Shown: positions 54,027 to 64,000 of the stretch, piece after piece
Numbering within the stretch: position 1 is the first letter of the stretch
Layout of the letters: every line of letters starts with the position of its first letter
Assembly (NCBI GenBank): GCA_945871085.1
Contig: CAMBVX010000001.1
Location: forward strand, 7,347-71,346
Source: Opitutus sp. GAS368
Lineage (GTDB): Bacteria > Verrucomicrobiota > Verrucomicrobiia > Opitutales > Opitutaceae
Length of the DNA stretch: 64,000 nucleotides
Direction of reading: 5' to 3'
Made by a program: the position numbers and the translations under genes
The notes under the pieces: model-generated
The model's input: the letters and a program-made list of their open reading frames with translations, nothing else
The model's database searches: none
What the model was told of the DNA's origin: nothing

Positions 54027-55232
54027 ATGCACGCACCACCTCGTCACCTCGTTGCTCTCTTCGCCGTCTTCACGGGCTCGCTGCTCGCCGCCGATTCGTT
54101 CGGCGACGCCTTGGAGCAAGGCACGGTCTCGCTCAACGCCCGCCTCCGCTCCGAAGGTGTGCAACAGACCAGTCTCCGCGCCGCCGATGCGATCACGCTG
54201 CGCACGCGGCTCGGTTTCACCACCGCGCCTTGGCAAGGTCTGAAGGCCATGGTCGAGGCGGAGAACATCCTCGCGGGCAACGGCGACCGCTACAGTCAGG
54301 CCGGCCTGAATCCCGCCGCCACCGGCCGCGCCGTCGTCGCCGATCCCGAGACCAGCGAAATCAACCAAGTGTTGCTCGCCTACACGTCCGGCAAAACCAC
54401 CGCGACGCTCGGCCGCCAACGCCTCGTCTTGGACAACGCGCGCTTCATCGGCGACGTCGGCTGGCGGCAAAACATGCAGACCTTCGATGCCTTCGTCGTG
54501 CAGGACAAAACCCTCGACAAGACGACACTCACTTACGGCTACCTCGACCAGATCAACCGCGTCTTCGGCGACGATCACCCGCAGGGCAAATGGCCGTCCG
54601 ACTCCCACGTGCTCAATGCCAGCTACACCGGCTTCGCCGCCGGCACGTTCACCGGCTACGCCTACCTGCTCGATTTTGCGAAAACCGCCGCCGCGAATTC
54701 CTGCGCGACCTACGGCGCCAGTTTCGCCGGCACGCAGCCGCTCAGTGCCGACGTAAAATTCGCCTACCGCGCCGAGCTCGCCACGCAGTCCGACTACGGC
54801 TCCAGCGCGCTGAATTATGCGACGACCTACGCCGCCGTTTCCGCCGGTCTCGTGGTGCAACCCGGCACGCTCACGCTCGGCTATGAACAACTCGGCTCCG
54901 ACAATAAAGTTGGTTTCAAAACTCCCCTCGCCACGCTCCACGCTTTTAACGGCTGGGCCGATCTCTTCCTCGCCACGCCCGCCGCCGGCTTGCAAGAAAC
55001 CTCGGTGCGCGCGACCGCCAACCTCCCCGAGAATATCGCGCTCACCGCCTCGTATAGCCGTTTCGAGACCGACGTCGGCCGCGCGAAACTCGGAAAAGAA
55101 TTCGATGTGCAGCTCTCCCGAAAATTTGGCAAATCCGTTACCGGCCTCCTCAAATTCGCCAACTTCCGCCGCGACAGTCTGACGTTGCCCAACGTCCAGA
55201 AAATCTGGATGCAGGTCGAGTTCGTTTACTAG
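54027..55232 (+). CDS. Outer-membrane porin (alginate-export-like barrel family)
   Basis: Signal peptide HLVALFAVFTGSLLAADS. RFIGDVGWRQNMQTFDAF block as I recall it from Alginate_exp-type porins. C-terminal ...IWMQVEFVY (aromatic terminus). Confidence 0.7.
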   Translation: MHAPPRHLVALFAVFTGSLLAADSFGDALEQGTVSLNARLRSEGVQQTSLRAADAITLRTRLGFTTAPWQGLKAMVEAENILAGNGDRYSQAGLNPAATGRAVVADPETSEINQVLLAYTSGKTTATLGRQRLVLDNARFIGDVGWRQNMQTFDAFVVQDKTLDKTTLTYGYLDQINRVFGDDHPQGKWPSDSHVLNASYTGFAAGTFTGYAYLLDFAKTAAANSCATYGASFAGTQPLSADVKFAYRAELATQSDYGSSALNYATTYAAVSAGLVVQPGTLTLGYEQLGSDNKVGFKTPLATLHAFNGWADLFLATPAAGLQETSVRATANLPENIALTASYSRFETDVGRAKLGKEFDVQLSRKFGKSVTGLLKFANFRRDSLTLPNVQKIWMQVEFVY

Positions 55233-55245
55233 CCCGGTCTTGATG

Positions 55246-55665
55246 TTTTGTCATCGCGAGAGCTGAACCAAGGCGCGGCGCCTTGGGTGCCCGGGGCAAT
55301 GAACTTTGTTTGTCATGGCGAGCTCGGAGCAAGCGAGCTTGCGGGGTGGTGGCAGTGAACCGGACAAGGTTTGTCATTGCGAAGGAGGCTTGCCGACTGT
55401 GGCAATCCATCTGGAAACGCACCGTGGATTGCCGCAGTCGCTGAGGCTCCTTCGCAATGACAAACAGCGGCTGTTTCCTAGAAGAAGCGCAGCGACGTGG
55501 CCATCCATCTGGAATTTCAGCTGGATTGCCGCGCCCGCCAAGCCGGGCTCGCAATGACAAACTGTATGTGTTCATTCGCAGGAGCAGCCCTCCGCGCGGC
55601 GACGAAGCAATCCAGCTGGATCGCCACGCCGCGCGCCTTGCGCCACGCGAGGACGATCATTTCGA
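55246..55665 (+). repeat. Cluster of GTCATTGCGA...TCGCAATGAC-type long hairpin repeats (R2 units a-b-c-d-e)
   Basis: For example 55369-55462: TTGTCATTGCGAAGGAGgcttgccgactgtGGCAATCCAtctggaaacgcaccgTGGATTGCCgcagtcgctgaggCTCCTTCGCAATGACAA. Units a, d and e recur in the same order at 57688-57927. Confidence 0.88.
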
Positions 55666-55984: not shown

Positions 55985-57607
55985 ATGCATGCTACCTCCC
56001 TTAAACTCGGTTCACCTCGTCTGGTCGCCGGCTTCGGTCTTGCCGCGGCCCTGTTCATCGTCCCCGTCACTTTGGCCTGCGAAGCCTGTAACAGTGTCAT
56101 GGCAAAGCGCCTGCTCGGCGGCAACAGCCCCTCGGTGCACGCGGCCGAACTCACCGCCTTGGTGAAAAATTCCGGCTGGAACGGTGCCGCCAATCTCCTG
56201 GCCTTTGCGGGCGGCGCCCCGTTTCAGAGTTCCGCCGGTGGCGGTGGTGGCGCCGCCGCTCCCGCGGCGACTCCGCCCGTTGCACCCCCGCACCCGTTTC
56301 AGGCCGTCATCGATCGGGATAAAAAACTACCCATGTGGGAGACCAGCTACGTCGTCCCCGGCACCAAGCCCGACAAGAAATTTCGCCTCGAGATGAACGA
56401 AGGCGATGTCTTCATCGGCAACGGCGTCGTCTACAGCGGATTCACCGTCAACGGCACGATTCCCGGCCCGACGCTCATCGCCGAGGAGGGCGACGTGATT
56501 GAGCTGACGGCCGTCAACAACGGCGGCGTGCCGCATGGCATGTCCATCCACGCCGCCTACACGCAGACCTCGAAATACCTCGGCAAGATCGCCCCCGGGG
56601 CGACGGCGTCCATGCTCTTTCGCGTCAACCACCCCGGCGTCTACATGTATCACTGCGCCCCGGGCGGACACGCGATCCCGATGCACACGCTGCTGGGCCA
56701 GTATGGCATGTTCGTCGTCAAGCCCAAGACGGTGAAGTTCAAGGCCGAGCAGATCATCGGCCACAAACCCGACGTCGAACTCTACATCGTGCAGCATGAA
56801 CTTTACGCCAGCGGCAAGGAAGCCGTCGAAGGCCACGCGGCCTACGTCCTGTTCAACGGCAAACTATTCCGCTACGTCGAGAGCCCGATCAAAGTGCGCC
56901 CGGGTGATTTTGTGCGGATCAACTTCCTCAACGTCGGCCCGAACCTCATCTCCACGTTCCATCTCGTCGGCATCATTTGGGATTACGCCTACTGGCAGGG
57001 CACGCCGACGCCGGAGAACACCTTCACCGGCGGCCAGAGCGTCACCGCCGGCCCGACGGACTCCTGGGTCGTCGATTTCCGCGTGCCACCGGACGAGGGC
57101 AACTACCTGATCGTGACGCATGCCTTCGGCTCGACGACGCGCGGTGCGATCGGCGTGCTCGCCGCTGCGAAGGACGCCGTGCGCACGCCCACAGTGTTGG
57201 CCGACGGTCCGGCCTACTCCGAGGCCGCGATGAAGGAACACACGGCCAAAGCCGCGCGCGTCATCTCGCCGTTCAAGGCGACCAAGGATGAACTCGAGAA
57301 TCCCTCCACGCTCCCGGCCGGGCAGAAGAAACTCCGCATTCAAATCATCGGAAATTCCTACTGGCCGAAAGTGGCCTCGGTGCCCCCCGGCACCACGGTC
57401 GAGTGGGTGAACGAAGATATTTTCACCTTCGCGAGCGGTGAGTTTGCGGGCGTCCACGACGCCGTGACCAGCGAAGCCCCGGAACATTTCGCCTCCAAGA
57501 TGCTCGGCCACGCCGAAAAATGGAGCACGGTTCTGACGAAGAAGGGCGACTACAAATTCTACTGCACACCGCATCCGTATATGGAAGGCATCATCCGCGT
57601 CGAGTGA
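55985..57607 (+). CDS. Copper-containing nitrite reductase (NirK)-like two-domain multicopper protein with C-terminal cupredoxin fusion
   Basis: PHGMSIHAA (T1/T2 His pair spacing as H95/H100), YMYHCAPGGHAIPMH (His-Cys T2/T1 pair), and a second-domain STFHLVGIIWDY (H306-like). The last about 100 aa form a separate blue-copper domain, GTTVEWVNED...GVHDAV...YKFYCTPHPYMEGIIRVE (Cys-x2-His-x2-Met). The N-terminus has a membrane/signal segment and a Gly/Ala/Pro linker. Confidence 0.75.
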   Translation: MHATSLKLGSPRLVAGFGLAAALFIVPVTLACEACNSVMAKRLLGGNSPSVHAAELTALVKNSGWNGAANLLAFAGGAPFQSSAGGGGGAAAPAATPPVAPPHPFQAVIDRDKKLPMWETSYVVPGTKPDKKFRLEMNEGDVFIGNGVVYSGFTVNGTIPGPTLIAEEGDVIELTAVNNGGVPHGMSIHAAYTQTSKYLGKIAPGATASMLFRVNHPGVYMYHCAPGGHAIPMHTLLGQYGMFVVKPKTVKFKAEQIIGHKPDVELYIVQHELYASGKEAVEGHAAYVLFNGKLFRYVESPIKVRPGDFVRINFLNVGPNLISTFHLVGIIWDYAYWQGTPTPENTFTGGQSVTAGPTDSWVVDFRVPPDEGNYLIVTHAFGSTTRGAIGVLAAAKDAVRTPTVLADGPAYSEAAMKEHTAKAARVISPFKATKDELENPSTLPAGQKKLRIQIIGNSYWPKVASVPPGTTVEWVNEDIFTFASGEFAGVHDAVTSEAPEHFASKMLGHAEKWSTVLTKKGDYKFYCTPHPYMEGIIRVE

Positions 57608-57687: not shown

Positions 57688-57927
57688 TTGGTCATGGCGA
57701 GAGCTCGGGCCAACGCCGGGCCGTTGGGTGAAAGGGGCGATGAACGTTGTTGGTCATGGCGAGGAACGCAGCGACGTGGCCATCCATCTGGAAATTCAGC
57801 TGGATTGCCGCGCCCCCAAAGCCGGGCTCGCAATGACAAACCCTATGAGTGCATTGGCAGGGAGGCTCTGCCGACCGCGGCAAGCCAGCTGGATTGCTTC
57901 GGCGCTGCGCTTCTCGCCATGACAACC
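57688..57927 (+). repeat. Second R2 hairpin-repeat cluster (units a'-d'-e'), direct repeat of parts of 55246-55665
   Basis: ttggtcatggcgagagctcgggccaacgccgggccgttgggtg..gatgaacgttgt parallels 55246-55308. gcgaggaacgcagcgacgtggccatccatctggaaattcagctggattgccgcgcccccaaagccgggctcgcaatgacaaac is about 95% identical to 55480-55562. Confidence 0.88.
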
Positions 57928-58062
57928 AACGATGCTTCGCTGGCGTAAGTTGACGCTTACGGGCTGGCCGACTCGCTCCCTCTTGCGCCCGGACCACGAG
58001 TCCGGGCGCCGTTGTGTCCGGACGTCGGCGCGGGAACGAAGGCGGGTTTCCGCACGCAAACC

Positions 58063-58076
58063 TTGACCTCGGTCAA
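58063..58076. promoter_or_regulatory. FNR/Dnr/NnrR-type box TTGAC-CTCG-GTCAA (within 18-nt palindrome CCTTGACCTCGGTCAAGG)
   Basis: Centre at 58069.5. The -10-like TACAAC at 58099-58104 sits inside CTTTGCGCTACAA, the same string as at the NirK promoter. The predicted TSS is at about 58111, which coincides with the first ATG of the next gene. Confidence 0.7.
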
Positions 58077-58110
58077 GGCGGCGCGCGCGCCTTTGCGCTA
58101 CAACTGCGCC

Positions 58111-59565
58111 ATGCCACCCCCCACGGCCACCTTCCCCGCCAGCGCCCGATTCGCCCCGCGCCTCGCGGGTGCGGCGCAGTCGGATGCGTCCGTCTCCGCC
58201 TCGGCCCTCCAACCGGCCCGCGGCTGGTTTCTTTTCGCCATTGGCAGCCTCGTGCTCGCCGGCCTGCTTTCACTCCTGCTCGTCGTCGGCCGGCTGCCGT
58301 TTCTCGGCTGGCTGTTCACCGATCCGCTCTTTTTCAAACGCGCCCTCGTGGTCCACGTCGATCTCGCGATCGTCGTCTGGTTTCAAGCCGGCACGCTCGC
58401 GTTTCTCGCTCTGGCCGTCGGCCCGCGTCTCCACCGCGGTGTGACGGCGGCCGCGCTCGCGCTCGCGGCGGCGGGCATCGTCGGCTTGCTCGTCGGCGCG
58501 GTGATGCCGGGTGCGCAACCCGTCCTCTCCAACTACGTCCCGGTGATCGACCACCCGATTTTTTTCGGCGGACTCATCGCCTGGTTTGCCGGCTCCGGTT
58601 TATTCTTCGCCCTCGCGCTCGCCACACCCTCGCGCACCGACGCGAAGGCGCTCTCCGCCGATGTCGTGATCGCCCTGCGCGCCTCGGCCGTCGCGAATCT
58701 CCTGGCGGTGGTCACCTTCCTGGGAGCGTGGCAAACGACGCCGGATTCCGTGCCGGGCGTATTTTATGAGCTCCTGTTCTGGGGCGGCGGTCATGTCCTG
58801 CAAACGGCCAACGTCGCCGCGATGCTCGCCCTGTGGTTGCACCTGTTGCACCGCTGGACGGGTAGGGTGGTGCTGACCCCGGCCATCGCAACCGCCCTGC
58901 TCGCCGCGCTCGTCGCGCCGCAGGTCGTCATGCCGCCGCTGGCCTTCGGGGGCACGACCGCCACGAGCTATTTCTCCATGGCCACTCACCTCATGCGTTG
59001 GACGATTTTCCCCGTGGTGCTGGTCGTGCTCGGCGCCGCGACCCTCCACGTGTGGCGGGCGCGGAGGACGGTGAATTGGCGCGACTATCGTTTCCTCGGT
59101 CTCGCCGGCAGCGCGTCGCTGACGCTCCTCGGATTTATTCTCGGGGCGCTGATCCGCAGTTCGAGCACGCTCGTGCCGGGCCACTACCACTGTGCCATCG
59201 GCGCGGTGACGATCGCGTTGATGGCGGCGGCCTATGATTTCTGCGCCGCTGTCGCGCCGCACGGTGCCGCGGCCGAAACACCGCGTCGCGCGCGTCTGCA
59301 GCTCCTGCTCTTCGGTGGTGGCCAGGCGGTCTTCGGCCTCGGATTCGCGCTGGCCGGCACCTACGGGCTCGGGCGCAAACAATACGGTGCCGAGCAGCAC
59401 GTACGTTCGCTCGGCGAATACTTCGGCCTCAGCGTCATGGGCCTCGGCGGCTTCGTGGCCGTGGCCGGCGGGATATTTTTCCTCGCGGTGATGCTGCGCC
59501 GGATCGGCGCGTGGCATCGTGATTTTTCTCCCGTCACCTCATCCCTCCATGAACAACGAACCTGA
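58111..59565 (+). CDS. Haem-copper-oxidase subunit-I-like polytopic membrane protein lacking the helix-VII CuB His-His pair
   Basis: Aligns by eye with the subunit I at 60277: LLFWGGGHVLQTANVAAMLALWLHLLH vs LIWWGLGHQSQQVNVCAMVSVWYLISH; LVPGHYHCAIGAVTIALMAAAY vs RIPGHFHVTVVGGTTLAFMALAY; VVHVDLAIVVW vs TFHGINMLILW. Where the partner has SAHHLLVDP this protein has LVAPQVVMPP. The start at 58111 is uncertain. Confidence 0.7.
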   Translation: MPPPTATFPASARFAPRLAGAAQSDASVSASALQPARGWFLFAIGSLVLAGLLSLLLVVGRLPFLGWLFTDPLFFKRALVVHVDLAIVVWFQAGTLAFLALAVGPRLHRGVTAAALALAAAGIVGLLVGAVMPGAQPVLSNYVPVIDHPIFFGGLIAWFAGSGLFFALALATPSRTDAKALSADVVIALRASAVANLLAVVTFLGAWQTTPDSVPGVFYELLFWGGGHVLQTANVAAMLALWLHLLHRWTGRVVLTPAIATALLAALVAPQVVMPPLAFGGTTATSYFSMATHLMRWTIFPVVLVVLGAATLHVWRARRTVNWRDYRFLGLAGSASLTLLGFILGALIRSSSTLVPGHYHCAIGAVTIALMAAAYDFCAAVAPHGAAAETPRRARLQLLLFGGGQAVFGLGFALAGTYGLGRKQYGAEQHVRSLGEYFGLSVMGLGGFVAVAGGIFFLAVMLRRIGAWHRDFSPVTSSLHEQRT

Positions 59566-59698
59566 AAAACATCCGTGGCAGAAAGTGCTCGATAACCCGT
59601 GGCTGCTCCTCGTCCTCGGCGTCCTGATACCGATTTTGTCCTACACCGTGTGGGGCTGGGTCGAACTCGTCCTCACCAAACCCGCGTTGCTGCCCTGA
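59549..59698 (+). CDS. Small single-TM protein, candidate ba3-type subunit IIa analogue (not in supplied ORF track)
   Basis: ATG at 59549, TGA at 59696-59698. MNNEPEKHPWQKVLDNPWLLLVLGVLIPILSYTVWGWVELVLTKPALLP (49 aa, one hydrophobic helix). Lies immediately 5' of a one-TM CuA subunit II and overlaps the preceding gene by 17 nt. Confidence 0.5.
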   Translation: MNNEPEKHPWQKVLDNPWLLLVLGVLIPILSYTVWGWVELVLTKPALLP

Positions 59699-59713
59699 AC
59701 CCCCTCTTTTCCC

Positions 59714-60265
59714 ATGAGCTTAAGTCCTCTCACCAAACCGTGGTTTCACGCGCCGGCGGGCCACGAAAAAATCTGGCTCGGCTGCGCGGTCCTCTGGTGC
59801 TTCGTGATGTCGCTGATGATGCCGTACTGGCATTTTCGCGGTAAACAAAACAGCACCGGCGAAGCCTACACCGTTAAACCGGCCGACTTCCTCGCTCGCA
59901 CCGAAAAGTTCGTCGCGTCGAACAAGGTCGGCACCTATAAAAATACCAACCACAACGCGCTCATGCCCGAGTTGCCCCTCGTCGAGCCGCCGGCCGGCGG
60001 CGACGCCTACTTGATCGGCCGCATGTGGCACTGGTATCCGGCGCTGCGCCTGCGCATGGGCGAGACCTATCGCCTGCACCTCTCGGCGCTCGACTTGCAG
60101 CACGGCTTCTCGCTGCAACCGATCAATATGAATTTCCAGGTGCTGCCCGGCTACGATCACGTGCTCACCTTCACTCCGACTTCGAAGGGCGAGTTCACCA
60201 TCGTCTGCAATGAATTTTGCGGCGCCGGCCATCACGCCATGTCCGGAAAAATCTTTGTCGAATAA
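59714..60265 (+). CDS. Haem-copper oxidase subunit II (single TM + CuA cupredoxin domain)
   Basis: One TM (IWLGCAVLWCFVMSLMMPYW). CuA ligand pattern LQHGFS ... CNEFCGAGHHAMSGKIFV (H, C-x-E-x-C-x3-H-x2-M). Confidence 0.88.
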   Translation: MSLSPLTKPWFHAPAGHEKIWLGCAVLWCFVMSLMMPYWHFRGKQNSTGEAYTVKPADFLARTEKFVASNKVGTYKNTNHNALMPELPLVEPPAGGDAYLIGRMWHWYPALRLRMGETYRLHLSALDLQHGFSLQPINMNFQVLPGYDHVLTFTPTSKGEFTIVCNEFCGAGHHAMSGKIFVE

Positions 60266-60276
60266 CCGCCCCCGCC

Positions 60277-61980
60277 ATGTCCACTCCCTCTCATTCACTC
60301 TCCGCTCCGGGCACGCCCGGTCGCGTGTGCGGCACGACCGGCCTCGGTGTCTGCCTCGACGCCCAACGCTTCATCAAGCTCAATGCCGTCGCCGGCATTG
60401 TCTTCCTCCTCCTCGGTGGCATCGCCGCGCTCCTGCTCGCGCTCACGCGTTGGCAGACCGTGCACCTGCTCCCCGTCGACTGGTTTTATCGGATCCTGAC
60501 GTTCCACGGCATCAACATGCTGATCCTGTGGATACTCTTCTTCGAGATCGCCATCCTCTACTTCGCCTGCACGACGCCGCTCAATTCCCGGCTCTTCTCG
60601 CGCAAGATTGCCTGGGTCTCGTTCGGGATGATGCTCACCGGCGCCATCATGGTGGATTACATCATCATCGCCGGACAAGCCGACGTGATGATGACTTCCT
60701 ACCTGCCGCTGCTGGCGCATCCGCTCTTCTACCTCGGGATCATTCTCGTCGCCGTCGGCACATTGGTGGGCGTGTTTAATTTCTTCGCCACCCTCTACGT
60801 CGCGAAACGGGACCAGACCTACACCGGCTCCGTGCCGATCGTCACGTTCGGTGCCACCGCCGCCGCCATCATCGCCGTCGTCACTTTGTTGCACGGCGCC
60901 GTCGTGATGATCCCGACGTTTACTTATTCGATGGGTTGGACGCCGCAGCCCGACCCCGCGTGGTATCGCCTCATCTGGTGGGGCCTCGGTCACCAATCGC
61001 AGCAGGTCAACGTCTGCGCGATGGTCTCCGTCTGGTATCTGATTTCGCACATCGTCGTCGGTGCCCGCCCGATCAACGAGGCCGTCTGTCGCACCGCCTT
61101 TGTGCTGTACATTCTTTTTATCAATCTCGCCTCGGCCCATCATCTCCTCGTCGATCCCGCAGTCGGTGCCACGTGGAAGATCTGGAACACGTCCTACGCC
61201 ATGTATCTCGCGGTGCTCGCCTCGATGGTACACGGCTTCACCGTCCCCGCCGGCGTCGAAATTGCCATGCGTGAAAAGGGCTACACGAGCGGGATTTTCG
61301 GTTGGGTCACGGCGCTGCCGTGGAAGAACCCCGCGTTCTCCGGCACCGCGTTGTCGGTCGTCATCTTCGGGTTCCTCGGCGGCATCACCGGCGTCACGCT
61401 CGGCACGCAGCAGATCAATATCATCGCGCACAACACCCTGCGCATCCCCGGTCACTTCCACGTGACCGTCGTCGGCGGCACGACCCTGGCGTTCATGGCG
61501 CTCGCCTACTACGTGATCCCGCTGATCTTCCAACGCGACTTCATCTTCCGCGGGGTCGCCCGCCTGCAACCGTGGTTGTTCGGACTCGGGATCGTGATGC
61601 TTTCCTTCGGCATGTCGTTCGCCGGTTCGATGGGTGTTTCCCGCCGTAGTTGGGATATTGATGCGCAAGGTGTCTATGGTCCCGCGGCCCACCTCTGGCT
61701 CGGCGTGCTCGGCCTCGGTGGCGTCCTCGCCTTCGTCGGTCTGCTCGTCTTCGCGCTGCTCTGTGTCGGCACACTCTTCTTCGGGCCGAAAATTGAACAC
61801 CGCGCCATGGCCGACTGGGGCACACCGCCCGCCCTCGCCGGTTCGGAATCCGGCTCACTGGCCAATGACCACTACGCCACCAAGGGCACGATGGTCCTCG
61901 TCCTCGTTTTCCTCGCCTGCTTCGCGGTCTATTATTTCGCGAACTGGAAGGCTCTCGCCGACGTCTGGCCCGTGCGCTGA
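60277..61980 (+). CDS. B-family-like haem-copper oxidase subunit I lacking the His-Tyr cross-link tyrosine (NO-reductase-like variant)
   Basis: ATG at 60277 (MSTPSHSL). Ligand set present: helix II LTFHGINM, CuB WWGLGH, SAHHLLVDP, helix X IPGHFHVTV. It is collinear with Thermus ba3 as I recall it (FWWTGHPIVYFW / HHQFADP / GWIRALPWDNPAF vs GWVTALPWKNPAF / PGHFHLQV). The His+4 position is Gln (GHQSQQV), not Tyr. Confidence 0.85.
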   Translation: MSTPSHSLSAPGTPGRVCGTTGLGVCLDAQRFIKLNAVAGIVFLLLGGIAALLLALTRWQTVHLLPVDWFYRILTFHGINMLILWILFFEIAILYFACTTPLNSRLFSRKIAWVSFGMMLTGAIMVDYIIIAGQADVMMTSYLPLLAHPLFYLGIILVAVGTLVGVFNFFATLYVAKRDQTYTGSVPIVTFGATAAAIIAVVTLLHGAVVMIPTFTYSMGWTPQPDPAWYRLIWWGLGHQSQQVNVCAMVSVWYLISHIVVGARPINEAVCRTAFVLYILFINLASAHHLLVDPAVGATWKIWNTSYAMYLAVLASMVHGFTVPAGVEIAMREKGYTSGIFGWVTALPWKNPAFSGTALSVVIFGFLGGITGVTLGTQQINIIAHNTLRIPGHFHVTVVGGTTLAFMALAYYVIPLIFQRDFIFRGVARLQPWLFGLGIVMLSFGMSFAGSMGVSRRSWDIDAQGVYGPAAHLWLGVLGLGGVLAFVGLLVFALLCVGTLFFGPKIEHRAMADWGTPPALAGSESGSLANDHYATKGTMVLVLVFLACFAVYYFANWKALADVWPVR

Positions 61981-62001
61981 GTGCCGCCTGCCCCCTCCGC
62001 C

Positions 62002-63024
62002 ATGTCCGTCCCCGTCACCGTGGTTTTTTCGCCCGCGAGTTCCGCCGTTCCTACGCCCATTCCGGGCGGCTGGGGCGGCACGGCACCCGCGCGATTCCTC
62101 ACGGGGCCGGGGCTGCTGGTGTTTCTGCTGACCGCCCTCGCGGGCTATGAAGGATTTTTGCTGCTCACGATTTTCGGTCCAACCGAGGGCGGTTGGCTCG
62201 GAGACTTTGTGCGCGATTTTCAACTCTGGTGTTATCGGGGCGATCCGCGCACCGGCGGGATTTCGTGGCTCGCCGTCTCCGTAATGATGGGTGAGCCGAT
62301 TTTTGTCGTGGGCGTCGCCGCGCTGCTGTGGCGGAAAGTATTCCTTCGGCTGAGTTCGCCCGCGCTCTGGCTGACGCACGCGCGGGCCGCGGGCACCGCG
62401 CTGCTCCTGACGGTGATCGCGGCCGGCGGGCTCCTCTACTATGCGCGCACCGACGCCGTGAGCGCCCAGATCTTGCCGCCCTTCCCCGGGGAGCGCATCC
62501 GCGTCCACCTTGCGCTGCCCGACACCGCACTCATCGACCAGCAGGCCGCGCCGTTCCGTTTCGCCGACCTGCGCGGCCGCGTCGTCCTCGTCACCGGGGT
62601 CTATGCCGCCTGCACCACCGCGTGTCCGGAAATATTCATCGAGTTGAAAAAAATCCTCGGCGAACTTCCCGCCACCGAGCGCGCCGACCTCAGCGTCGTG
62701 GCGCTCTCGCTCAATCCGGAATATGAGACCACCGATCTGATGAACGCCCTCGCCGAGGGCCGCGGCCTCACGCATCCTGAATTCCGTTACGTCAACGCCC
62801 CCGCCCCCGCCGCCATGCACGATGCACTCACGCGGCTCCAGTTCTCCGCCACGCGCAATCCGCAGACCGGCGTGATCGACCACGCCAATCTTTTCCTGCT
62901 CGTCGATCGCTCGAACCACATCGCTTATCGCTTCACCCTCGATGCGCGCCACCGCGCGTGGTTGCGCACCGCCTTGCGGTCCCTCCTCAGCGAAACTCAT
63001 GCCGTCGCCCCACGAGCACCCTGA
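62002..63024 (+). CDS. SCO1/SenC copper chaperone domain fused to an about 170-aa polytopic N-terminal membrane domain
   Basis: C-terminal thioredoxin-fold FRFADLRGRVVLVTGVYAACTTACPEIF...VALSLNPEYET...VIDHANLFLLVD (CxxxC + His). The N-terminal half has about 4 TM helices. The start at ATG 62002 or GTG 61981 is unresolved. Confidence 0.8.
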   Translation: MSVPVTVVFSPASSAVPTPIPGGWGGTAPARFLTGPGLLVFLLTALAGYEGFLLLTIFGPTEGGWLGDFVRDFQLWCYRGDPRTGGISWLAVSVMMGEPIFVVGVAALLWRKVFLRLSSPALWLTHARAAGTALLLTVIAAGGLLYYARTDAVSAQILPPFPGERIRVHLALPDTALIDQQAAPFRFADLRGRVVLVTGVYAACTTACPEIFIELKKILGELPATERADLSVVALSLNPEYETTDLMNALAEGRGLTHPEFRYVNAPAPAAMHDALTRLQFSATRNPQTGVIDHANLFLLVDRSNHIAYRFTLDARHRAWLRTALRSLLSETHAVAPRAP

Positions 63025-64000
63025 CGTTGATTGCGAGTTGCTCGCCGACGCGCTGGGGCCGACGGCGAATCCTCCCGGTTCGCAGCCGCCGGTGCCGCCG
63101 GTGCGCGCCGCGCGTATCTTCGCCGCCGGCGACCGGCTCGCCACGCGGCTGGACACCTGGTTGGAGCGCTGGCTCCCGCGCGAACTGAATCCACTCGCGC
63201 ACCTCGGCGCGGCGGCCAACGCCATGCTCGTCCTCGCCACGCTCTCCGGCGTGCTGATGCTCATCTGGTATTCGGCGAGTGTGCAGTCGGCGTGGCATTC
63301 CCTCGCCGATCTGGCGCCGCGCTCCTTCGGCGGGCTCGTGCGCAGTGTCCATCGCTACTCGTCCGACCTCGTCATGCTGCTCGTGCTCGCTCATGCGCTG
63401 CGCACGCTCCTCGCGCGCAAGTTCGCCGATGCCCGCTGGCTCGCGTGGGTCAGCGGCATCGCGCTGCTGGGGCTCGTGTGGTTCATCGGCTGGAGCGGCT
63501 ACTGGCTCGTGTGGGACGTGCGCGCGCAACTCCTCGCCCTCGACAGCATTCGCGCGCTCGATGTATTGCCGATCTTTGGGGAACCGATGCTGCGCCTCTT
63601 CACCTCCGATGCCACGGTGCCGTCGCTCCTGTTTTTTGTCGTTTTTTTTCTCCACATGTCGCTCCCGCTCGGGATCGCGGGCGGGCTCGCCCTGCACCTC
63701 GCACGCCAGAGCCGCACGCAACTGCTGCCGAACTGGCGGCTCTCGGTCTGGCTGGCGGGCGCGGTCGTCGTGGCCGCGCTCGTATTCCCAGCGACCAACG
63801 CCGCCGTCGCGCAGATGGCGGTCAAACCCGCCCGGTTCACGATGGACTGGTGGTTTCTCTGGCCGCTCGCAATCACCGCGCGCCTCTCCGGTGGTGGCAT
63901 CTGGCTCACGACGGTGCTCGCCACCGCCGGCTTGATGACCGTTCCGTGGTGGCTCGCGCGCCGTCGGCCGCGCCCGACGTTTCAGGCGACCGTCAACGTC
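62999..64000 (+). CDS. Di-haem cytochrome b-like membrane protein (3' end beyond window; not in supplied ORF track)
   Basis: Frame 2 is open from ATG 62999 to the window end: MPSPHEHPD...LVRSVHRYSSDLVMLLVLAHALR...FFVVFFLHMSLPLGIAGGLALHLAR. Two His pairs, each spaced 14 residues on predicted helices B and D, as in cytochrome b/b6. Overlaps the SenC gene by 26 nt. Confidence 0.7.
   Translation, partial: MPSPHEHPDVDCELLADALGPTANPPGSQPPVPPVRAARIFAAGDRLATRLDTWLERWLPRELNPLAHLGAAANAMLVLATLSGVLMLIWYSASVQSAWHSLADLAPRSFGGLVRSVHRYSSDLVMLLVLAHALRTLLARKFADARWLAWVSGIALLGLVWFIGWSGYWLVWDVRAQLLALDSIRALDVLPIFGEPMLRLFTSDATVPSLLFFVVFFLHMSLPLGIAGGLALHLARQSRTQLLPNWRLSVWLAGAVVVAALVFPATNAAVAQMAVKPARFTMDWWFLWPLAITARLSGGGIWLTTVLATAGLMTVPWWLARRRPRPTFQATVNV

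Follow-up and report, generated by a model that had tools for sequence, protein, structure and literature searches.

What does a paralogue of the haem-copper oxidase (HCO) catalytic subunit do beside a complete copy of that subunit, when two of its own three CuB ligands are gone? The question is raised by a gene, here called X, in a stretch of 64,000 nucleotides from Opitutus sp. GAS368 (Opitutaceae, Verrucomicrobiota; contig CAMBVX010000001.1, positions 7,347 to 71,346), which we refer to as the window. An original prediction, made from the letters of the window, took X for the first gene of an oxidase operon and offered as possible roles a sensor, a subunit that binds or scavenges nitric oxide (NO), or an alternative catalytic partner. 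We find that X is functional, is kept by selection and is paralogous to the catalytic subunit of an sNOR-type enzyme (a putative NO reductase, NOR); it is encoded in a fixed gene cassette that carries an FNR-type promoter in Opitutaceae. As to what the protein does, our best guess, which we hold tentatively, is that X would act as an accessory haem-only redox subunit of a membrane complex.

A subunit I paralogue without the helix VII histidine pair

X is a true homologue of HCO subunit I. Its paralogue, an sNOR-type subunit I that lacks the cross-link tyrosine, has its gene 0.7 kb downstream. Its product matches the Pfam COX1 profile (PF00115) over profile positions 5–425 of 436 with 35.2 bits, above the cut-off (GA) of 34.8 (E = 8.8e-9), and BLASTP aligns it with the downstream subunit I over 406 residues at 25% identity (E = 6e-16). 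The profile match and inspection of the alignment bear out the homology that had been proposed from three sequence blocks; the blocks are real and correspond to LVVH82V on helix II, W224-G-G-G-H228 on helix VI and P-G-H358-Y-H360 on helix X. A profile of the X family scores 141–169 bits against the subunit I proteins encoded beside X, 128 bits (Defluviimonas) and 95 bits (Thermus) against subunit I proteins from plasmid clusters that have no X, and 65 bits against Thermus ba3 subunit I (E = 5e-17); phmmer with X alone found no match among PDB sequences even at E <= 10, and only the family profile reached ba3. An AlphaFold model of X (13 homologues; pLDDT 78, pTM 0.81) has 12 transmembrane (TM) helices, and its top 49 matches in the PDB (E <= 0.001) are all subunits I of HCOs or NORs, with TM-scores up to 0.71, or up to 0.69 for the ba3 COX1 chain. 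None of the NCBIfam models matches X, and neither Pfam nor NCBIfam holds a dedicated model that sets the X family apart; in source databases its members go by “hypothetical protein” or “cytochrome c oxidase subunit I”, and PGAP labels some of them “cbb3-type cytochrome c oxidase subunit I”.

The haem ligands are kept throughout the family. In the family-profile alignment, H82, H228, H358 and H360 of X fall on H72 (haem b), H233 (CuB), H384 (haem a3) and H386 (haem b) of ba3, and R422/K423 on its propionate-binding pair R449/R450. We counted these positions in 129 full-length representatives among the best 150 family clusters, which are 26–80% identical to X: H82, G227-H228, H358, H360 and R422 are invariant (129/129), and W224 (128/129), Y359 and K423 (127/129 each) and Q231 (124/129) are nearly so. 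We therefore predict from the alignment that H82 and H360 ligate a low-spin haem and H358 a high-spin haem, that R422/K423 bind propionates, and that W224, H228 and Q231 form the distal pocket. The helix VI pattern W-G-x-G-H-x-x-Q is shared with the partner subunit I, and many members of the X family also have asparagine at His+6; Thr292, 90% conserved, aligns with Ser309 of the K-path analogue of ba3.

The CuB/FeB site, by contrast, is reduced to one ligand: the helix VI H228 is kept and the helix VII pair is absent. None of the 129 representatives has a His-His pair on helix VII, and X itself lacks any histidine in TM7 (residues 257–279), which means that the pair is missing whichever way the helix is aligned. 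The claim that X retains its haem ligands and has lost two of three CuB ligands thus holds across the family. A more specific claim, that the pair was replaced by Pro-Gln (LVAPQVV), survives in part: the pair is indeed gone, but its equivalence to Pro-Gln varies with the alignment, BLASTP placing it opposite P270-Q271 and the hidden Markov model (HMM) about six residues later, opposite P276-L277. Gln271 is invariant within Opitutaceae only; family-wide this position is mostly hydrophobic, with a single histidine in 11/129 representatives, and Pro270 is found in 104/129. The cross-link tyrosine is missing as well, Thr232 occupying the position of ba3 Y237 and no conserved tyrosine lying on helix VI or VII. 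Thermus thermophilus ba3 (PDB 1EHK, 3S8F) is among the best structural and profile matches of X and aligns with it at the ligand positions, but has H282/H283 and Y237, none of which X possesses, and is only 16–17% identical. We also considered X as a second copy of the same enzyme and rejected this, the His-His pair being absent family-wide.

A departure from the six-histidine rule has a precedent in gNOR, the first HCO family described with an active-site histidine replaced (Murali et al. 2024, PMC11214002). However, gNOR exchanges one histidine for an aspartate ligand and is thought to be catalytic, whereas X loses two histidines to non-ligands and coexists with a complete subunit I. We rejected a gNOR-like substitution in X, since there is no replacement ligand and the two histidines have given way to proline, glutamine or hydrophobic residues. 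Neither are the partner proteins of the gNOR type: the partner subunit I has the His-His pair, and the partner subunit II has the CuA ligands that a gNOR subunit II lacks.

X keeps the 12-helix fold and all the residues needed to ligate one haem (low-spin) through two histidines and another (high-spin) through one. Because the haem residues are kept and the CuB histidines are lost, X is expected to be a copper-free di-haem membrane cytochrome, which would itself be neither an oxidase nor an NOR; its open distal pocket (H228, Q231) may also bind NO or O2.

The X family is large and its members are constrained. A profile search of 1.84 billion representative proteins returned 1289 family clusters, defined at 50% identity, with E <= 1e-3, of which 904 pass a threshold of 1e-10 and 479 one of 1e-30; most of the best 150 clusters measure 420–520 residues, the others being a few fragments and longer fusion proteins. 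X is present as one uninterrupted match in 80 metagenome loci and in 57 Opitutaceae genome loci, the latter from a scan of named genomes that used a narrow Opitutaceae alignment and covers other groups thinly. Comparison with six relatives gave dN/dS values of 0.12–0.18 for X, 0.04–0.08 for subunit I, 0.05–0.12 for subunit II and 0.14 for SCO: X evolves about 2–3 times faster than subunit I, at a rate like that of the assembly factor SCO, and is maintained under purifying selection, not as a relic. The loss of two catalytic ligands and the faster evolution could be read as signs of a decaying or non-functional duplicate, and frameshifted or decaying copies in close relatives would have spoken for it; but about 140 loci from different phyla carry X intact and at full length, 55 of its positions are at least 85% conserved among relatives of 27–80% identity, and its promoter is conserved too. 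We rejected decay as extremely improbable.

The cassette and its predicted promoter

X is the first gene of a cassette with the order X, 49-residue open reading frame (ORF), subunit II, subunit I, SCO and cytochrome b-Fer4-FlpD (Table 1). About 45 Opitutaceae genome loci share exactly this order, and so does every metagenome locus that has a downstream flank, down to 37% identity of X; the same holds for metagenome-assembled genomes of Myxococcota and for the cultured Lacunisphaera limnophila (CP016094.1). By its close relatives, the organism of the window is itself an Opitutaceae bacterium near Lacunisphaera. The co-occurrence with a tyrosine-less subunit I, which had been noticed in the window, is strict in other genomes: more than 120 loci encode a complete subunit I beside X, and its family is specific and the same throughout. 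These partners carry GH[QSP]SQQ[VI]N in helix VI, the His-His pair and PGHFH in helix X even where the X beside them is only about 30% identical; in the partner subunit I of locus L147, motif searching recovered no PGHFH.

The partner belongs, with good support, to the sNOR family. sNOR (NorY/NorS, norSY-senC) is a B-family-derived, CuA-containing putative NOR of ammonia-oxidizing bacteria, Bacillus, Deinococcus-Thermus and Rhodobacterales, and its signature, as tabulated in PMC8756737 after Hemp and Gennis (2008), is six histidines, no tyrosine and asparagine as the active-site residue. The downstream subunit I has the six histidines and the asparagine and lacks the tyrosine (GHQSQQVN, ASAHH and PGHFH are all present, and asparagine is at His+6 in 8/8 partner and related sequences), and it adjoins a CuA subunit II and an SCO gene (COX2 and SCO1-SenC matches). 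The CuA motif of subunit II reads CNEFCGAGHHAM, and the full motif is also present in the subunit II proteins of the partner loci. The nearest solved structures to subunit I are B-family oxidases (E down to 7e-44); its homologues are 46–51% identical in Rhodobacterales, Thermus and Thermomicrobium, with weaker matches on Deinococcus plasmids, all below 60%, and Rhodobacterales and Deinococcus-Thermus overlap the taxa given for sNOR. The assignment is a match to the published description, not to a reference NorY, and an eNOR, with glutamine in the active site, is possible. X itself resembles the sNOR-type subunit I more closely than it does ba3, as the bit scores above indicate, and is encoded with subunit II, subunit I and SenC; it differs in lacking the helix VII pair, and hence a CuB/FeB site, and in being an extra, faster-evolving gene. 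The published clusters of ammonia-oxidizing bacteria and Bacillus contain norS, norY, senC and orf1/cbaD only, with X not among them.

The 49-residue ORF is missing from the ORF list that accompanied the window. By tblastn it occurs in 137 loci, including the Thermus and Defluviimonas plasmid clusters that have no X, and it has been called as a gene in L058, L062, L064, L147 and L153. It occupies the small-subunit position of ba3-type clusters (cbaC in Bacillus) and probably serves these oxidoreductases as their small subunit, comparable to ba3 subunit IIa or the Bacillus cbaC product. The gene for the cytochrome b-iron-sulphur (FeS) protein lies 3' of SCO in nearly all loci, and its Opitutaceae orthologue in L012 (12789–15002) encodes 737 residues. 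The protein combines an N-terminal bc-type di-haem cytochrome b, a 4Fe-4S dicluster and an FlpD/MvhD-like domain in 520–740 residues. Over positions 58001–64000 the AT skew is strongly negative, at about −0.24 to −0.26, against about 0 in the rest of the window, which would fit T-rich codons in successive plus-strand genes for membrane proteins.

Table 1 Features of the X locus (positions of the window)
Feature	Position	Strand	Remarks
Outer-membrane porin-like protein	54027–55232	+	Weak Pfam Alginate_exp match; recurs beside NirK or X
NirK-like copper nitrite reductase with C-terminal cupredoxin domain	55985–57607	+	TIGR02376 (3e-35), Pfam Copper-bind
Palindromic box of the FNR/Dnr/NnrR type, TTGACCTCGGTCAA	58063–58076	not assigned	Centred 41.5 nt before the first base of ATG 58111
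−10-like hexamer TACAAC (family TAnAAn)	58099–58104	+	6 nt before the ATG
X, CuB-less paralogue of HCO subunit I, predicted to bind two haems	58111–59565	+	484 residues, 12 TM helices; ATG 58111 to TGA 59565
Small single-TM subunit (probable), 49 residues (MNNEPEKHPWQKVLDNPWLLLVLGV..., MNNEPEKHPWQKVLDNPWLLLVLGVLIPILSYTVWGWVELVLTKPALLP)	59549–59698	+	tblastn; overlaps the 3' end of X by 17 nt
Subunit II, NorS-like	59714–60265	+	CuA motif C-N-E-F-C-G-A-G-H-H-A-M; Pfam COX2, TIGR02866
Complete subunit I, NorY-like	60277–61980	+	All six His, no cross-link Tyr, GHQSQQVN; COX1 210 bits; ATG 60277 is the corrected start
SCO1/SenC copper chaperone with N-terminal membrane region	61981–63024	+	Pfam PF02630; position conserved in the cassette
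Cytochrome b (N-terminal, di-haem)-Fer4-FlpD fusion, 5' part	62999–64000, runs off the window	+	Frame-3 translation; Pfam on orthologue

Only two elements upstream of X are conserved in 15 aligned Opitutaceae loci: a palindrome TTGAyc-N4-rTCAA and a hexamer TAnAAn, in which T, A, A and A are invariant; the remaining upstream DNA is unalignable. Of 83 metagenome loci, 59 also have TTGA-N6-TCAA upstream of X, against a chance expectation estimated at about 0.004 per 280-nt region, and the spacing of box, 22 nt, hexamer, 5–7 nt and ATG recurs in dozens of loci. A sigma-70 consensus scan found no promoter here, and the elements are visible through cross-species alignment only. We take the palindrome to fit the consensus of FNR/Dnr/NnrR boxes, and a distance of −41.5 to be the geometry of class II activation. 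The pattern of a class II FNR/CRP-type promoter is present in full: a palindrome (TTGAT-N4-ATCAA type) near −41.5, a −10 element and no −35 element, the value of −41.5 holding if the transcription start site (TSS) is the A of the ATG. The hexamer is then at −12 to −7, and no Shine-Dalgarno sequence fits in the 6-nt gap. The TSS is accordingly predicted to coincide with the ATG of X and the mRNA to be leaderless, a prediction made earlier from a promoter call and backed here by the conserved spacing of box and hexamer, not by the consensus scan.

The start codon of X deserves comment. Gene callers give TTG-58012, with a product of 517 residues (P0001), whereas homologues share an MPPP start that corresponds to the ATG. 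We rejected the TTG start because the conserved promoter lies within the ORF that it opens and its elements would fall inside the coding region; annotated X is probably 33 codons too long at its 5' end (58012–58110).

Loci without an FNR-type box (L060, L062, L131, L137, L139, L144–L146) often have an Rrf2-family (NsrR-like) gene beside X, which suggests that control of the FNR/Dnr type and of the NsrR type has been swapped by lineage; CRP-family genes are found near the cassette in nine loci. In some loci the box is preceded, at a distance of about 60 nt, by a second one of the FNR type, which in L009, L012 and L037 lies in the intergenic region shared with a divergent gene for a haem O synthase-like protein (UbiA) and may co-regulate cofactor synthesis and the cassette. 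With such a promoter, X would be co-produced with the NOR at low oxygen or with NO.

Neighbouring genes and the possible roles of X

The neighbours and regulatory signals of X are those of NO and low-oxygen metabolism. NirK or NirS genes adjoin X cassettes in many loci, and the recurrent neighbours are NirK/NirS, the porin, nosZ, NnrS (in L058 and L064), hemerythrin, Rrf2 and CRP-family regulators, as well as NrfHA in L. limnophila. This setting, its FNR-type or Rrf2-type regulation, the NnrS and hemerythrin genes of some loci, and a predicted distal pocket with invariant His228 and Gln231 and no second metal would suit the idea, already present in the original prediction, that X senses NO or O2, or buffers NO, by binding the gas at its open high-spin haem, and would then gate electron flow or protect the neighbouring enzymes without turnover. 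Yet X has no output or signalling domain, nor does any of its fusions; its low-spin haem and a fusion to cytochrome b described below imply electron transfer; and dedicated CRP/FNR-family and Rrf2 regulators are already encoded nearby. We think a sensor or buffer quite unlikely. NnrS (PF05940; haem and copper, 12 TM helices) is likewise a polytopic membrane haem protein of NO-responsive neighbourhoods, but we rejected X as an NnrS, as it has no Pfam NnrS match and the two are separate families.

Several features of the nitrite reductase region were noted in passing. NirK carries a C-terminal cupredoxin domain in the window, and the NirK proteins of L064 and L. limnophila carry a cytochrome c domain. 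A gene with an FGE-sulfatase domain and a second SCO gene lie 3' of the nitrite reductase gene in L064 and L153. Arrays of imperfect palindromic repeats, REP- or MITE-like, flank NirK in the window at 55276–55632 and 57717–57931, in units of about 41–100 nt that are 73–90% identical. Related loci differ in where NirK and the porin gene lie relative to the cassette and in how they are oriented, which points to rearrangement.

This enzyme family can dispense with X. The same enzymes occur without X on plasmids of Thermus, Thermomicrobium and Defluviimonas, with the order small ORF, subunit II, subunit I, cyoE, SCO, cytochrome b-FeS and hemerythrin in Defluviimonas, and small ORF, subunit II, subunit I and Rrf2 in Thermus; a tblastn search for X in 72,556 plasmids found no match. 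On the megaplasmid of Thermomicrobium roseum (L152, 8817–10619), the gene annotated “heme o synthase” that lies 3' of the sNOR-type subunit I gene encodes about 600 residues, about twice the usual length; the product may be a fusion, possibly of CtaA and CtaB. We rejected it as a form of X, X having no tblastn match in plasmids.

Gene fusions and close gene contacts, seen in a distant clade of the X family, bear on its role. Protein P0229 is a fusion of Cytochrome_B and X, followed by a NirS gene, and in L064 the start codon of X abuts the stop codon of the cytochrome b-FeS gene. Together with the kept pair of predicted low-spin and high-spin haem sites, this fusion and the abutting genes favour an accessory redox subunit; the fusions of X in general, the L064 arrangement and the dispensability of X argue for either an accessory redox role or one in cofactor handling over the roles first proposed. 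In the redox role, electrons would most likely pass between the haems of X and both the NOR and the di-haem cytochrome b-FeS protein.

The third of the roles first proposed, an autonomous or alternative catalytic subunit that works without copper (as NOR, NO dioxygenase or oxidase), with the same subunit II or with cytochrome b alone, could draw on the same fusion beside NirS, on the conserved Thr292, and on three loci (L065, L148 and L149) in which distant X members have no visible HCO structural genes beside them. Those three contigs, however, are only 3–6 kb long, and more than 120 loci pair X with a complete subunit I of a single family. To our knowledge, moreover, no HCO or NOR characterised so far works without a second metal on three histidine ligands, of which X keeps one. 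We therefore give catalysis by X in its own right little credence.

A different set of contacts links X with haem O synthase. P0228, encoded between subunit I and SCO in L147, is a fusion of X with UbiA (haem O synthase-like); in L149 the X and UbiA genes overlap by 4 nt; L148 has X among SCO, CtaA and UbiA genes, and L065 the order DUF420-X-UbiA. UbiA is found in 47 loci, in many of them divergent and just upstream of X, and the Defluviimonas cluster without X has cyoE at the corresponding place. X might then be a scaffold or insertion factor that passes or matures a farnesylated haem (haem O or a derivative) on its way from haem O synthase to subunit I, and its SCO-like rate of evolution and optional presence would agree with that. 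Dead paralogues that serve cofactor assembly are known in NifEN for NifDK and in NirN/NirF for the cytochrome cd1 NirS. There too, a duplicate keeps the cofactor site, loses catalysis and adjoins the genes for the enzyme and its cofactor, though the likeness to X would be a functional analogy with no sequence relationship. Against a scaffold it can be said that haem O synthase genes are common in oxidase operons because the cofactor is needed, so that adjacency is unspecific; that a chaperone has no obvious need for an invariant bis-His site, an Arg/Lys pair and a distal His/Gln; and that the cytochrome b fusion beside NirS points to redox work. We also know of no HCO assembly factor that is a 12-TM paralogue of subunit I. 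A scaffold role, the main rival to the redox reading, is possible, if on the unlikely side.

The accessory redox subunit, which we prefer, has difficulties of its own. That X would bind haem, lack copper and join a complex is in each case predicted from sequence. The enzyme family does without X on plasmids of Thermus, Thermomicrobium and Defluviimonas, X has no match in 72,556 plasmids and is not listed in the published clusters of ammonia-oxidizing bacteria and Bacillus, and in Defluviimonas the cytochrome b-FeS protein itself is encoded without X. It is not obvious that a pure electron relay needs a five-coordinate haem with an invariant distal histidine and glutamine; and the X-UbiA fusion and overlap, with CtaA, SCO and DUF420 as neighbours, fit biogenesis at least as well. 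H228 and Q231 over the high-spin haem are accounted for neither by a pure relay nor by a pure chaperone. A bolder proposal, which we regard as unlikely, is that X and the cytochrome b-FeS protein form a haem-only machine that performs NO or O2 chemistry at a metal-free pocket, or else matures or loads farnesylated haem independently of oxygen for an anaerobic NOR. If this were true, X would be the first working member of the HCO superfamily that is free of copper.

A CuB-less branch of the HCO superfamily

X represents a new, large and unnamed branch within the HCO superfamily, one whose hallmark is that the metal site of the binuclear centre is lost. Six histidines have served as the defining signature of the superfamily, and surveys have left out sequences without them. 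A 2011 HCO census dropped any sequence that lacked one of the six histidines (PMC3084760), and the CuB-less branch is unrecorded in it because sequences without the six-histidine signature were filtered out. The rule applied in that census, and the description of gNOR as the first family with a replaced histidine (PMC11214002), agree with the original view that a CuB-less paralogue beside a complete oxidase is unusual. We found no paper on a CuB-less subunit I paralogue or on an sNOR operon that includes X, although our coverage of the literature was incomplete and this is weak evidence of absence.

For genome annotation, gene counts based on COX1 (PF00115) would miscount X as an oxidase or NOR. 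For the superfamily, X is a natural test of the HCO scaffold without a second metal, and the cultured L. limnophila, which has the whole cassette, provides an experimental handle. sNOR-type enzymes have been proposed as contributors to N2O, and our results suggest that in many Verrucomicrobiota, Myxococcota and uncultured lineages sNOR-type assemblies may exceed two subunits, with X, the 49-residue subunit and the cytochrome b-FeS protein as the additional components.

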